Of a stretch of DNA of 64,000 nt, positions 55,501 through 61,500 are shown piece by piece. The position numbers were made by a program. The stretch lies in NCBI RefSeq assembly GCF_056712565.1, contig NZ_CM160072.1; one strand, written 5' to 3'. How positions within the stretch are numbered: the first letter of the stretch is position 1; each line of letters opens with the position of its first letter.

Positions 55501-58500
55501 GCCATTCCGGCGTTGTCCAGGTCTTCCCGTCATCTCCTGAGCGAACCCATGCAACATGGAGGTTATTTACACCATGGCGGTCTCCAGCCATAAAAGGCGC
55601 ATAGATGACATTGTCATATACAAACGTTTTATCCTGCGTCCAGGCGTTGTACCACGGTGTATCTGTAATTTTAAATAACTCTCCCTGGATAAAATCTTCA
55701 GAAACATAAAAAAGAGGCTGACCCGGTATTCTCTCAAATAAAAAACGAGCATTTTTAAATCGACTGACATCTGGAAGAGTTGATACTTTAAAAGTAAGCC
55801 CTCGCCCATCTATCTTTTCACCACCTGTTGCAACAGAAAGTAATTCTGATAGAGCTGATGTATCATCATGAACACCATCACCAATAGCCCCCCAACCTCT
55901 TACATCATAACTGTCTCTCCATCTTGCTATCTGAAGTTTTGGGTATTTATTCGCTCCATCTGGGTCTTCTAATTGCTGCCGTAGTTGATCAGGATCATAC
56001 TTCAGCACATTCTGGAAATAGAACTGCTGTACGCCATACGCATCGTACACAGCCATAGAATGGCCTTGCACAGTTACGAACTTGGCAATCCGTCCGTTAT
56101 ATACAGGGTAACCAGCAGCGTTAATGATGATTGGTTGCGAAACAGGAACGTGAGAGCCGTCTTCGTTCTCTACATAAACCTGAATCCGGTTTTCAGGATT
56201 TACCGGGTCAGTGTCAATTTTACCGATATAAATTTTGCCATTGGCTACGGCTTTAAAAGAACGCGCCATAGTGAAGAGTTGCGAAGGCATCGATACAATC
56301 ACATTGGCTGTAATGTCTGTCATTTAATTTGCTCCAGATGCAAAGAATCGCCGCAGCATGGCCACGGTGAATTTTGGGCATAAAAAAACCCAGCCGAAGC
56401 TGGGTCGTTGCGTTGGTTATCTGTCAGTAATTATGTACTGAAGGAGGTAATTCTTTATTCTTAAGTCTCATCCATGCGGAAAGATTCGTTGGTCCGTCTG
56501 GCTCATTGATATCAACATCTCGTGTGTGATTGATTAAAACGTCTCTCGCCATATCGATAATACGGGAGAACTCATAACCGCAGTCATGACATCTGCCGGA
56601 ATAGTTCGATTGAATTTGTTTTAGCGCCGGATACAGTTCGCGGAATAATGCCTGTGAGCGGTTGGCATAATCCCATAGCCATACAAGGCTGTTTGCTTCT
56701 TTTGCAGAAAGCTCGTTGGTTTTCTTCTCTTGTTTGCCGATGAACTCACCTTCAAGCACTACCCTGTGGATGTACTCTACTGCTTGTGGTATCTGAGATG
56801 CATCAAGCTCTTCAATACTTTCCACATTGAAACGCTGATGAATCATTGCATAAGCTTCTGGGTACATTAGATGCTTTTTGCTGACTAGCATATTTACAGC
56901 ATCACGAAGCGGAGTCCTGTCATCAACAGATGTTTTCTTCCGTGCATTTGCTGCCTCTCCCTTTGTCCAGTAGTCATGCAGCACAGTAAAGCATTCTTCC
57001 TGGTACTGAATCAGTTTATCGCGGATGTCAGCACGAACTTTCTCAGGGTTGATGCTGAACAGCCATCCATTTAACTTCTTCAAAGGAAGGCAGAGTAGCT
57101 TACGAAGCTTACCATCAGCGGCAACCATGTTCATATGAACACAGTTGAATTTGCTAATCTGCTTCATGAGTTTTGTTTGCTGCGTTGACCAGCTCATTCC
57201 GAGGTTTTCAACGATTGGCTTCATCGCAACATATGCAACTCCGGCAGCCATGGCGGTGATAATTTGCTGACCGTTGAATGGCACGTAAGAGGTGTTCACT
57301 GCTTCTAAAATTGCTATACTATTCATGTTGGTTTTTCTCCACGGATTTACCGACAACCGAAGCCCTGACTGTTCCAGCAGTTGGGGCTTCACTGTTTTGA
57401 TTTCTTTGCCGCATCAAGCATCACTTCTGAAAACGTGCGCTTGCCACTGAATACTCTTTCTCTTCTCAATTTTTCGTTCGTGCCAAATGATTCGCCATGA
57501 ACAAAATTTGGTCTTAAAATGGTAATCGCAATCTCTTTGACTACTGCATCCAAGCGAATCACACCGTTACCCCCTCTCTCTTCAGGCTGTCTATCAGGCG
57601 CTTGATAACCTCTGAGTTAAACGACCTGCACTCTTCCTTTGCCCTGCTACCGATAGCATCCTTTAACGACTGCGGCATCCTTACCAAAATCTTACTTATT
57701 TCTTTCTCCATGTTACCCTCCACGCAAACAACTCTTTTCGAATACAAAAGATAGCAAAGTGAGTATATCTAGTCAAAATTTTTTTGCATACACTTTGCTA
57801 TCAAATTGAATACCAAAGGTGTTATATGGCAAAGGGTGTGTCAATTTCTCCAACTACGGTAAGAATCCCTGAATCTTTACGCGAGGCTCTTGCTGTCAGA
57901 GCATCAAAAAATGGTCGCTCTGTTAACTCCGAGATCGTCATGATTTTGCAAGCCGCGATTGATGAAGATAGGTCGCCAAAGTCAGTTGAGTCATTTGCTC
58001 AGCAAGAAGCTGATAAATTCAAAGAGGCGCTACTTGAGACGCTAAAGACCATGTATGCTAAGGATGAAAAATAATGCTGCACACAATTCATTTCTTATGC
58101 CCTGTTAACACTGCCACTGTTGGGCAACTTCAGAACCACTGTCTCACCGCATTATCTCAAGGCGCAACTGAATTAAATATCCATATATCAAGTCAGGGAG
58201 GGGAAACTGCTGCTGGCTTTACTGCGTATAACTTTCTTAAGTCACTCCCTGTTACCGTTAGAACTCACAACATAAGCAATGTTGAATCCATAGCTAATAT
58301 CGTTTTCCTGGCTGGCTCAGAACGTTTCGCAAACCCATTATCAAGATTCCTGTTACATCCTCTATTATGGTGCTTTGCCTCCCCAGCCGCCGACCATGCC
58401 AGATTGAGAGAGTACGGGAAATGCCTCGATAACGATCTTGATCGCTTCGTTGAGACGTTCAATATCGACATCGGAACCCATATTAGGTGGGCATCCCTGA

Positions 58501-61500
58501 TAGCAGACTCGACCATTTTGGATGCTAACAAGGCTCTTGAGCATGGCATAATTAATTCCATAAAAACTGCAAGGCTGGCATCCAATCAGGCAAACTGGTG
58601 GGTTGTTTGATGGGTAAATCATGATTACTCCTTATAAAAAACCCACCTGACGGTGGGTTTAGTCAAACATAGTGTTTCTAAAGTCTCTCGCATACCCTGC
58701 TAACACTCTCATTCTATTATGATTGTTAGCAGACATGTGAGCTACAGGATGAAAAAGAGCAATCAATGAATACCTGTTCTCATCAAAAAGATTTTGTGCA
58801 TAAACGAGAGCGGTATTGGATGTTTTATGCCACTGCAACTTTTGCGGTGTGCTGATATCTGTGCCATTTTTTATTGGCTCAAATTTATTTTCACCAATTG
58901 CTAAATGAAGGTGCATAAGGCCTGCATCTTCAATATCAGGAGGTCGATGATAAGAGGTGTCTCTGCCAAAATAGCTGGGCAACGTTCCCGTAGACTTGTA
59001 GATGATAAAATCATCTACAAGTGTTTGTTTTAAATCAGGAAACTCAACAAAAACCGGGGAGAAAAAATAGTCAAAACTATCCTGATTATATTCCACGGTT
59101 ACTTGCATGTTTTACCTCAGTGGAAGTTACCAGAGTGAAACACACGAGTCCCGTGCTCAGCAAGCGCACGCAAACCAGCCATATCTACGGAACTATCAAA
59201 AACAACCGGAACACATGAGCGTTGTTTAATAAGACTATTCAGGTTGGTTACGGCAGATCTGGCATCAGCAACAACGATATAGATATCTCTTGCGATCTCT
59301 TTAAAATCAGCAGAAGCTTCTTTGAATACCGATTTCATTGCCCCTTCAAGTCCTCTCAATTGATGCTCTATCAATCGAGACTTTTCTGGTTCAATGATAG
59401 ACAACACATTGTCTACATTCTCATCGGTAGCGTTTGCAAGAACACGATAAGCGTATTTCAGCATTCGAGACAATTCTTTAATCGAAGACACCGCCTCATG
59501 AAGCTCATCATTAGCCCGTTCACTGCTGAATGAGGATTGATGGTAAGCGTGCTGAACGTTATCAGTAACAACCACCTCACAACTGAACGCAGAAGCTTGC
59601 TGTAATAGCAAACCTATTGCGACTCCAGCTTTGGCAGCGTTCAAGCTAAACATTTCATCAATCCCATTAGTCTCATTGCTCATACAAACCTCCTTCTTAT
59701 CGGAGATTATCAATAGCTATGCATCCATTGAATACACGCTATGCGCAATAAGTTTACGTCACGTGATATCATTATGCAACCACCGTTCTATCACCGACTA
59801 ACTTTACTCCCACTCCTATACATCATCTGGTATCCTGCGCAAAACTAAGGAGGTTGGTGTGAATGCTCAGTCTGTCATCATGGTTTTCCTTGGGCTGATT
59901 GTCGCAAAACTATATCCAGACTGGTGGAAAGGGGCATTAGCTACTGTCGCCATCTATTTGCTTTTATCCATCGTTAAGCGATCACTCGCTGAGACCGTAA
60001 ATCAAGCAAAACGTTTCTCATTTAAGAGTTTAATAAACTATGTTACTGGGCTTATTTTTTGCCTTTCAATTCTGATCGCTTCGGCTTTTTTGCCCGTATC
60101 AATAGCTAATTTTTTTGGCGCACCATATGAGGTAGGTTATCTATTCTCTGTTTCCTGTCTTGCCATTGCTCTTCTTTACCTGTGGACGAGATCAAAGAAT
60201 AAAAATTAGCCATCCGTGGCTGCCAGTTATTGAGCTTCTTTTTGTGATGCCTGTGCGACTCTGGTGAGCGATTGTGTGACCGTACTGATCGCTCTGTCAT
60301 ATGCTGTGCTACCTTTTGGCGTATTTGCCAGACGTAACAAGGCATTTCGTATAACAGGGCTTTCGTATGCCTTCGCAGCTCCTCCTACGACACCAGCAGC
60401 AGGAACAACAAACGCAGCCGTTTTTAGCATCCCCGCTAATACTGCTGCGTTTATGATGCCACCACCAACTAACAATCCATAAAGCTGCTGACCATTTAAG
60501 TTTTGAACGTTCGCTTTTGCCGCGTGTCTTGTATCGTTGAGGTATTTAATAACGCCGTCCAGTTCCTTTCCATGTACGCCTTTAAAGAAAGTTGCTGATT
60601 GCTTCCTGTTCCGGTGTAACGCATTAATAAACTTTTCAACACTAATATTTCCAGACGGATCAGTCGCCTTATCTACAGCATTCTGAACTATGGCTGCTCG
60701 TGCGTTTTGCCTACCATTGTCATCCAGAAGCCTGTAAAGCTGAGAACGTTCTGATGGGTTTTGGCTAAAAACGAGTTTTGTTACATCCTCAGGTGTAGCC
60801 TTGCCGCTGGCTATTGCCTTTTGAACGCGCGTTCTTCCCATCATGTCATTGAATCTAGCCCATGAGCGATCAACCCTAGACATATTGGCAGCTTCTTCTG
60901 AGCCTAGTTTTTGGGATACTGCTTTTTTCATATCCGCTGTATATGCCTTGTAGACAATATCGCTGGCTTTCTGGAGCGTGTCTTTATCAACAGTCTCGTT
61001 TGAATTCATGAACCGCTTTCGAAGGTCAGTTCTGTTTTCTCTCGCCAGACGCAGGTCATTGGGTCCGCTGGTGATATCGTCTTTAAATTGCTGCAAGACT
61101 TTTACCGCGGCTCTATCCTGAGATTTGCCCGGGCGGCTTAACACGGCAATCTGATTGTCGATAGCTTTTACCGTGTTTGAGAGATCGACAGGGGTATCCC
61201 CCATAGCGTCAATTATGCGGTTATATCGCTTTCCTGCTGCCTCAATGAATTTTTGTTGCCCTTTAGTCGCAGATTCATAAAGCTGTTTATCAGAAATGCC
61301 ACCCAGACCATCGCTAAATGTTCTGACTAAATTTTCTCGTGCTTGTTGTTGATTCAGCCGATTCTTACCGGTTCCAAAAAAAGGAACTCTTTCGCCTAAT
61401 GTCTGAGCCTGACTCTGCATAAAGGTTTTATCTTTCAGCGTGTCACTGGTCATTAACGGCAGGTTTCTTTCCGACGCAAAATCGACAGCAGCCTTTGCTT

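Follow-up and report, generated by a model that had tools for sequence, protein, structure and literature searches.

The stretch of DNA analysed here (64,000 nucleotides of contig NZ_CM160072.1, RefSeq assembly GCF_056712565.1; hereafter the window) contains a prophage in which a gene for a ClpP-like protein directly follows a gene for a Mnt-like repressor. We are highly confident that the 178-amino-acid (aa) product of this gene (WP_000903306.1) is a member of a truncated subfamily of ClpP proteins that has given up the catalytic Asp and is typified by ClpP1 of Pseudomonas plecoglossicida (PpClpP1). Functionally, it would be a non-canonical ClpP subunit with an accessory role, similar to PpClpP1, and temperate phages carry its gene as a moron (accessory gene). 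The positions of the features discussed are collected in Table 1.

Fold and family of the ClpP-like protein

The ClpP fold proposed in the preliminary description is well supported by profile, model and structure comparison. Pfam CLP_protease matches the protein at 3e-11, with the match opening at model position 37. The AlphaFold2 (AF2) model, built on 31 homologues, has a mean predicted local distance difference test (pLDDT) score of 92.7 and contains the alpha/beta head and the handle of ClpP (handle helix H108-133), together with an extra C-terminal strand carrying a conserved NWWV motif that is seen in both the model and the alignment. When this model was compared with the Protein Data Bank (PDB) using Foldseek, 9UXT was the first match (template modelling (TM) score 0.93, root-mean-square deviation (rmsd) 1.6 A). 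Dozens of canonical ClpP structures came next with TM scores of 0.82-0.85 at ~20 % identity, E. coli ClpP among them at ~0.83, and chains of Listeria ClpP1/2 (4ryf) were also found among the top matches. The sequence comparison led to the same relative, since 9uxt_A matches residues 3-175 with an E value of 1.6e-35, compared with 2.5e-07 for the best canonical ClpP.

Against the curated models of NCBIfam, the protein scored 19.2 bits with TIGR00493 (clpP; cut-off 308.6) and at most 40 bits with all the PRK ClpP models, whose cut-offs are at least 228. The scores were 49.3 bits with Clp_rel_HeadMat (NF045542; cut-off 120) and 49 bits with scaf_prot_MCP1 (cut-off 475). All these values are far below the cut-offs, and the protein can therefore be taken neither for an orthologue of ClpP nor for a recognised prohead protease.

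The gene is under strong purifying selection: compared with the Pectobacterium homologue, which is 80 % identical, dN/dS is 0.075, and for every more distant homologue the synonymous sites are saturated. Because of this value and of more than 100 homologous loci, the open reading frame (ORF) is not a chance one, and the value also rules out that the window copy is a pseudogene or a decaying remnant.

The structure 9UXT is that of PpClpP1, a 183-aa N-terminally truncated ClpP paralogue published in February 2026 (PMC12900304). In this regard, the word "undescribed" in the preliminary description does not hold for the protein as a family. The Prokaryotic Genome Annotation Pipeline (PGAP) already calls the window protein a Clp proteolytic subunit, and PpClpP1, to which it is 38-45 % identical, has been solved and characterised.

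Active site, axial gate and docking pocket

Residue conservation was analysed in a set of 102 relatives plus E. coli ClpP, consisting of 50 %-identity cluster representatives of 170-215 aa drawn from 524 matches below 1e-10 in 1.84 billion proteins. Ser72 and His95 align with the catalytic Ser and His of ClpP and are invariant in all 102 relatives. At the catalytic Asp column (E. coli D171), the window protein has Ser146, and the family has Gly, Ala, Ser, Glu, Pro, His or Thr, mostly the first three. The nearby Asp145, evidently the residue read as the triad Asp in the preliminary description, lies one residue away from this column and was seen in only 8 of the 102 relatives, and the closer alignment of 31 sequences agrees with this placement. 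Of the Ser-His-Asp triad read from the sequence earlier, the Ser and the His have stood up, and the Asp, being off the column and not conserved, has not; an intact triad is ruled out.

The alignment opens at residue 39 of the E. coli ClpP (EcClpP) precursor. The first 38 residues, i.e. the pro-peptide, the axial loops and helix A, are missing, which is why the protein is shorter than ClpP, as had been noticed from the sequence. Eight EcClpP residues lining the pocket for the IGF/LGF loop (the acyldepsipeptide (ADEP) pocket) were also followed. Six of the eight are polar in the window protein (Y60, Y62, F82, I90, L114 and L189 correspond to N35, H37, S57, H65, N87 and K164), and only M92 and F112 have hydrophobic counterparts (I67 and F85). 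On this alignment, the protein lacks most of the pocket in which ClpX and ClpA dock.

Comparison with PpClpP1 and other ClpP systems

The "triad" of PpClpP1 is Ser73-His96-Pro151, in which Ser and His are essential and the third residue is dispensable (PMC12900304). Alone, PpClpP1 forms a homo-14-mer with an axial pore of 42.7 A, has a low peptidase activity (13-fold below canonical ClpP) and does not bind ClpX (PMC12900304). Together with canonical ClpP2 it forms a stable hetero-14-mer, which binds ClpX and degrades better than ClpP2 alone (PMC12900304).

The window protein shares with PpClpP1 the length class (178 vs 183 aa), the N-terminal truncation with loss of the axial loop and helix A, the equivalent pair Ser72/His95 with a third residue other than Asp, and a conserved acidic residue ahead of the catalytic Ser (VES), in addition to the similarity in full-length sequence and fold given above. 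The two proteins differ in the third position, which is Pro151 in PpClpP1 and Ser146 here, and their identity is only 38-45 %. They also differ in setting: the gene of P0079, the placed relative nearest to PpClpP1, is chromosomal, whereas the gene in the window belongs to a phage, as a moron joined to the mnt operon. Assembly, activity and pairing have been seen biochemically for PpClpP1, and for the window protein they would follow by extension from it. With canonical E. coli ClpP (MEROPS S14), the window protein shares the fold, the aligned catalytic Ser and His and the handle helix, whereas the 38 N-terminal residues, the triad Asp and most of the hydrophobic pocket of the former are lost or replaced.

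In two-ClpP systems, the non-canonical paralogue is weak or inactive alone and forms one ring of the mixed 14-mer; in the Pseudomonas cases it does not dock the unfoldase itself, and in Listeria ClpP1 the catalytic residues are Ser-His-Asn, so that Asp is also absent (PMC12900304). Second paralogues such as P. aeruginosa ClpP2, Listeria ClpP1 and M. tuberculosis ClpP1/P2 are looser kin of the window protein. In these systems both paralogues are cellular and belong to one genome, whereas here the second paralogue is brought by a prophage and its partner would be the only ClpP of the host. No phage-host hybrid ClpP has been described in the literature that we searched.

The ClpP-like gene as second cistron of mnt

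The ClpP-like gene is an ORF of 178 codons with an ATG start. The mnt-like ORF ahead of it stops with TAA at 58072-58074 and has one base in common with this ATG (TAATG), as the preliminary description had it, and an AAGGA Shine-Dalgarno sequence can be read within the 3' end of mnt, 9 nt ahead of the start. The 82-aa product of the first cistron is an Arc/MetJ-type ribbon-helix-helix (RHH) protein (Pfam Arc 1.7e-10; Arc-like families of PHROG), and PGAP names the two cistrons "Arc family DNA-binding protein" and "ATP-dependent Clp protease proteolytic subunit". Its counterpart in Pectobacterium matches PF11423 Repressor_Mnt. The gene is divergent from an arc-like gene and from ant and takes the place that mnt has in an immI region of P22 type. 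Together, the Pfam Arc match and the immI position confirm the assignment to mnt. The antirepressor gene ant is the target of Mnt/Arc control and completes the immI module that travels with the ClpP-like gene.

To the right of the locus, the minus strand encodes ejection proteins homologous to gp16, gp20 and gp7 of P22 (Pfam names taken from a syntenic Pectobacterium prophage). The ClpP-like gene therefore lies between mnt and gene 16 in the orientation of mnt, which corresponds to the sieA/orf59a slot of P22 immI, and the placement at an exclusion locus made from the sequence alone holds. In the P22 map, the slot between mnt and gene 16 houses sieA, an exclusion gene expressed in the lysogen. 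P22 SieA itself is an inner-membrane protein without sequence relationship to the window protein, which is predicted to be soluble and is ClpP-like.

A sequence 100 % identical to this region is present in E. coli ATCC 11775 and several genomes of the B2, sequence type 95 (ST95) and avian pathogenic E. coli (APEC) lineages. In ATCC 11775, the prophage is located at tRNA-Arg/intS and has a P22-family coat protein.

A mobile cassette at the 3' end of mnt

A scan of IMG/VR returned 115 viral loci with the ClpP-like gene, and the locus comparisons below cover 80 of them. The clade of at least 80 % identity consists of E. coli and Pectobacterium (40 loci), and in 35 of its loci the ClpP-like gene stands directly behind a Mnt-like RHH gene with the same 1-nt overlap. 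The coupling to mnt described earlier is therefore conserved. Across this clade, the Mnt proteins are 36-100 % identical, and the ClpP-like protein is 97-100 % identical in the E. coli copies. At the DNA level, the segment 58034-58660 is 97-100 % identical behind mnt alleles of only 36-64 % identity and ahead of many different genes, the downstream genes varying widely among the loci.

The high-identity block found by BLASTN begins on the left at one of three places (57559, 57982/57993 or 58031/58034, of which the third falls within the final 40 nt of mnt), and its right edge is always at 58632-58660, i.e. at a GC-rich hairpin (about 40 loci); the flanks are unrelated. A conserved block with such sharp edges, combined with variable mnt alleles and downstream genes, indicates a small cassette that was each time recombined onto the 3' end of mnt. 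The larger module can also move, since the lambdoid siphovirus PhiR12_1 has ant-arc-mnt-clpP in its entirety as an insertion between the tail genes L and K.

The hairpin is common to the convergent ClpP-like and YafO-like genes, and an identical region of 42 bp is annotated as "terminator" in phage Emek. It failed the strict T-tail rule of our terminator scan. We regard it as a likely bidirectional terminator and the likely right edge of the mobile cassette.

Several loci deviate from this arrangement. L022 and L023 have two successive RHH-type ORFs ahead of the ClpP-like gene (the mnt-like ORF at 2077-2295 in L022 and at 3227-3445 in L023), of which the second (84-85 aa) abuts the ClpP-like gene, with the last ~80 nt of mnt duplicated. 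By BLASTN, they match window positions 57982-58061 at 90 % and 58034-58632 at 99 %. This duplication looks like the scar of a cassette exchange through recombination within the mnt 3' end. In L050 (2371-4351), ~1.4 kb including a 326-aa ORF separates mnt from the ClpP-like gene, which is present from codon 62 onward. Interrupted or 5'-truncated copies were found in this locus, in L049 (3-371) and in the proteins P0017, P0047 and P0065. Because some prophages hold such copies, the cassette is dispensable and sometimes inactivated.

Distribution and other genomic contexts

The protein search yielded 68 clusters at 51-97 % identity, mostly of 178-187 aa (the family lengths cluster at 178-190 aa), from Escherichia, Klebsiella, Citrobacter, Pectobacterium, Serratia, Proteus, Providencia, Pantoea/Erwiniaceae, Rahnella, Leclercia and Chromobacterium. 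In E. coli, 145 of 5,426 complete genomes (~2.7 %) have the gene, always on the chromosome, and these include the species type strain and B2/ST95/APEC lineages. Isolated phages with the gene are rare (6 of 50,697 genomes). These viable phages, three Lederbergvirus and three lambdoid, all come from E. coli and belong to the 98 % clade. One plasmid copy was found, a 51 % homologue in Enterobacter.

In the loci examined from the clades of 51-75 % identity, there is no mnt, arc or ant near the gene, which rules out an obligate linkage to mnt/ant across the family. The association with mnt pointed out earlier thus applies to the clade of at least 80 % identity and not to the other phage clades, which have the gene in other moron sites. 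At these loci it is mostly solitary and antisense to both neighbours, with a minority having a co-oriented upstream ORF. In lambdoid prophages (Klebsiella, E. coli) the slot lies between the Rz/Rz1 spanins and the terminase/head genes, in Proteus prophages between N and recombination genes, and in a Chromobacterium prophage between tail-fibre and lysis genes. Other slots lie between tape-measure and baseplate-hub genes, next to Q, between tail-fibre assembly and DNA-invertase genes, and next to a gtr-type O-antigen glycosyltransferase. The gene is a phage moron in classic moron slots: it is a discrete cassette with sharp boundaries, is present or absent among related phages, and runs against the surrounding lytic genes or, in the clade of at least 80 % identity, forms the second cistron of mnt.

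The 38-45 % identical relatives of Pseudomonas type are chromosomal genes, so the family is not exclusively phage-borne. P0079, which is 68 % identical to PpClpP1, lies directly upstream of tig, and another relative of this type adjoins a type IB topoisomerase gene.

Two further branches were noticed. In a 52 % identical E. coli clade, a 186-aa ClpP-like gene stands between HNH/terminase genes and the spanins, and 78 nt upstream of it is a co-oriented 182-aa ORF (L072 3374-3922, plus strand; L099 2219-2767, plus strand; seen in L072-L078). The upstream protein belongs to phrog_5483 and has no Pfam or NCBIfam match, and the arrangement suggests a two-gene moron with a possible partner protein. 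The distant relatives P0107, P0123, P0134 and P0173 (~250-285 aa, 30-36 % identity) have hydrophobic N-termini resembling signal peptides as well as C-terminal extensions, which suggests a secreted or periplasmic branch of the truncated family.

Probable expression in the lysogen

As a translationally coupled second cistron, the ClpP-like gene would be translated whenever Mnt is made, i.e. in the lysogen. The mnt promoter (Pmnt) of P22 is active in lysogens. From this analogy and the coupling to mnt, we consider it probable that the ClpP-like protein is made in the lysogen. Promoter and terminator scans of the window locus and of three solitary homologues gave nothing above the shuffled expectation, and only L005 has a 10/12 promoter-like site together with a terminator immediately downstream. 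In the prophage Gally of adherent-invasive E. coli (AIEC) LF82, mnt is induced 40-fold in macrophages. The published primers for the Gally mnt deletion match neither the window nor any locus compared; therefore these expression data are not transferable.

Proposed role and alternatives

We propose that the ClpP-like protein, by analogy, assembles into heptameric rings. Because the head/handle fold and the invariant Ser72-His95 pair are kept, it is most likely a working serine peptidase. Having no axial loops or helix A, and being without most of the pocket and the Asp, the phage protein could not be driven by an unfoldase alone. Following the example of PpClpP1, the phage ring would stack on a ring of host ClpP, and the mixed 14-mer would dock ClpX or ClpA via the host ring with altered capacity or specificity. 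In this way, the prophage would re-tune host Clp proteolysis (the output of ClpXP/ClpAP) during lysogeny. This hybrid with an accessory ring is the best-supported mechanism, and we rate the chance that the whole chain is correct as about even. Several points weigh against it. Expression in the lysogen rests on the analogy with P22 Pmnt, and promoter scans of the window gene and three solitary homologues did not rise above the shuffled expectation. The pairing with E. coli ClpP would be extrapolated from a 38-45 % identical Pseudomonas protein in a chromosomal branch of the family, and the third active-site residue is Ser, not the Pro of PpClpP1.

As for the benefit to the phage, defence or exclusion is the single most likely pay-off, although we hold this only tentatively; a more stable lysogeny or a change in induction, or a gain in host fitness, are the other options. 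Defence could be achieved by a stand-alone protease, a gate-less 14-mer with a wide pore. Needing no unfoldase, it would protect the lysogen by degrading those proteins of superinfecting phages that are unfolded or extended, e.g. ejection or internal proteins entering in unfolded form. This would fit the sieA site between mnt and gene 16, the lysogen-oriented antisense placement of the moron in many phage types, the invariant Ser and His, and the defence- or toxin-like neighbours, e.g. the YafO-family toxin homologue. The homo-14-mer of PpClpP1 likewise has an open pore and measurable peptidase activity of its own, yet as a peptidase it is poor by itself (PMC12900304). For the ClpP-like protein, PADLOC-DB 2.0 returned no family at E <= 0.01, so that no model of a known anti-phage defence system matches; in the literature searched, nothing relevant on a ClpP moron of phages or prophages came up, with no paper mentioning the phage-borne gene, and the preprint on P22 SieA mentions no Clp-like gene. 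Moreover, the close Pseudomonas relatives are chromosomal (near tig and topoisomerase IB), so the family is not intrinsically a defence one, and genomic position by itself is a weak argument. We consider a stand-alone defence protease rather unlikely. A regulator of the prophage switch is distinctly unlikely in our judgement. Here the protein, made together with Mnt and working alone or with host ClpP/ClpX, would remove leaky Ant or another phage regulator or process repressor fragments, thereby tightening lysogeny or shaping induction. In the clade of at least 80 % identity, the gene is the second cistron of an operon whose first product represses ant, the entire ant-arc-mnt-clpP module moves into lambdoid tail operons, and ClpXP acts in prophage induction elsewhere by removing CI fragments in S. 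aureus (10.1101/2022.09.18.507959). However, the distant phage clades have no mnt or ant nearby, so that a function tied to Ant cannot be general, and the near-constant protease behind varying mnt alleles argues against a co-adapted pair. Co-assembly might also lower host ClpXP/ClpAP activity and stabilise substrates such as antitoxins and phage proteins, for which lambda RexB, reported to stabilise Clp substrates, offers a parallel. Such a poison or damping subunit would agree with the missing axial loops, with the loss of most IGF-pocket residues, with the likely expression in lysogens and with the failure of PpClpP1 to bind ClpX; nevertheless, the mixed PpClpP1P2 is more active than ClpP2 alone (PMC12900304), and a pure inhibitor would not need an invariant Ser and His, which makes this role very improbable.

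The remaining candidate, a head-maturation (prohead) protease, is how the gene is annotated in phage phiv205-1 (GenBank product name in MN340231), and the similarity searches seem to agree: the best PHROG match is PHROG_94 "head maturation protease" (7e-21), and Clp_rel_HeadMat and scaf_prot_MCP1 are the top NCBIfam matches by E value. Prohead proteases of this kind (NF045542; PHROG_94) are indeed phage-encoded, with a ClpP-like fold and no N-terminal gate. However, they are genes of the head module, and the window gene stands outside it, in immI, on the strand opposite to the late operon and far from portal, scaffold and coat genes. P22-type procapsids mature without proteolysis, so this phage needs no such enzyme. 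In other phages the gene, usually antisense, is part of the lysis, early, tail or conversion region, and the cassette occurs in lambdoid phages as well. In addition, the closest relative is a cellular ClpP paralogue, and the two curated scores fall far under their cut-offs (49 vs 120 and 49 vs 475 bits). On synteny and sub-threshold scores, we reject this candidate as almost certainly wrong, which corrects a recurring mis-annotation. The earlier statement that the protein is not morphogenetic is upheld by the location of its gene, which is no part of the head module and runs against the late genes, by the low Clp_rel_HeadMat score and by the P22-family coat protein.

Implications

The family is already partly known through PpClpP1. 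As far as the literature searched shows, the new elements are the occurrence of the paralogue in temperate phages of several morphotypes, where it forms an accessory cassette, the hard-wiring of the E. coli copy as second cistron of the maintenance-repressor operon of immI, and a phage paralogue that would act on or with the single ClpP of the host. Should the phage subunit in fact join or imitate the ClpP of the host, prophages would re-program a central host protease, with a bearing on the stability of lysogeny, stress physiology, toxin-antitoxin activation and phage-phage competition. ClpXP and ClpAP control RpoS, SOS fragments, antitoxins and several phage regulators. The phage subunit would also be a natural case of a horizontally supplied second ClpP paralogue. 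The only characterised member of the family dates from 2026, and the phage gene would offer a simple genetic handle on this family. A more far-reaching idea, which we think unlikely, is that temperate phages of Enterobacterales (P22-like, lambdoid and probably Mu/P2-like) use a gate-less ClpP-like barrel that works independently of unfoldases, or a phage-host hybrid 14-mer, as a lysogen-expressed weapon that degrades proteins of superinfecting phages, e.g. ejection or internal proteins entering in unfolded form. If true, this would be a new class of prophage exclusion or defence that hijacks or imitates the compartmentalised protease of the host.

Control signals and neighbouring genes

Table 1 Features at and around the ClpP-like gene in the window.
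Feature	Position	Strand	Evidence and remarks
ClpP-like gene	58074..58610	+	Catalytic Ser72 and His95, Ser146 at the canonical Asp position; Pfam, PDB match, AF2, Foldseek, conservation, dN/dS
mnt-like RHH repressor gene, 82 aa, first cistron	57826..58074	+	Pfam Arc, PHROG, PGAP
Shine-Dalgarno AAGGA	58060..58064	+	Sequence; inside the cassette starting at 58034, 97-100 % identical behind divergent mnt alleles
GC-rich hairpin AAAAAACCCACC-TGAC-GGTGGGTTT	58637..58660		RNA fold -23.3 kcal/mol, z -2.6
Perfect 12-bp inverted repeat GATAGCAAAGTG / CACTTTGCTATC	57750-57761 / 57791-57802 (29 nt between arms)		Repeat search; arc-mnt divergent control region
arc-like RHH gene, 50 aa	57559..57711	-	PHROG Arc-like families; PGAP "Arc family DNA-binding protein"
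Antirepressor gene ant, 300 aa from ATG at 57326	56424..57326	-	PHROG_245 anti-repressor Ant 1.5e-95; PGAP "phage antirepressor Ant"
YafO-family toxin homologue, 149 aa	58659-59108	-	NCBIfam PRK09885 4e-22, below cut-off; PGAP YafO family toxin
Gene upstream of the YafO-like gene, 188/198 aa	59117-59713	-	phrog_8416; weak ZorA-like PADLOC match, E 0.004
Membrane protein gene adjoining gene 16, 116 aa	59859-60209	+	Hydrophobic, apparently multi-pass
Tailspike ORF	54120-55025	+	3' end apparently truncated
IS3-family element	54950-56323	-	301-aa transposase OrfB
ORF between arc and ant, 57 aa	57389-57562	-	Hypothetical in ATCC 11775 (WP_000620145.1) and phiv205-1

In the control region between arc and mnt, the 12-bp inverted repeat is a likely candidate for an operator pair of Mnt/Arc. 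It overlaps a leftward promoter-like match on the minus strand (TTGACT-17-TATCTT, 57776->57748), which is a match to the consensus at a level not above chance. The 57-aa ORF between arc and ant is co-oriented with them.

The YafO-like gene and the gene upstream of it are co-oriented with each other and convergent with the ClpP-like gene, in the slot equivalent to sieA. They could be a toxin-antitoxin or abortive-infection pair, and their segment is present in none of the 80 viral loci compared. The 116-aa membrane protein, oriented like mnt, matches P22 sieA in position and orientation. It has no family match in PHROG, NCBIfam or PADLOC, and a 41 % homologue occupies the same place in a Pectobacterium prophage (L003 5976-6335).

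At the left, the tailspike ORF runs into an insertion sequence (IS) of the IS3 family, presumably IS2-like. Because this element appears to truncate the ORF, the window prophage is probably tailspike-defective. In ATCC 11775, the tailspike gene is intact (2.9 kb), and an IS21-family element, ISEc12, is found between it and ant.

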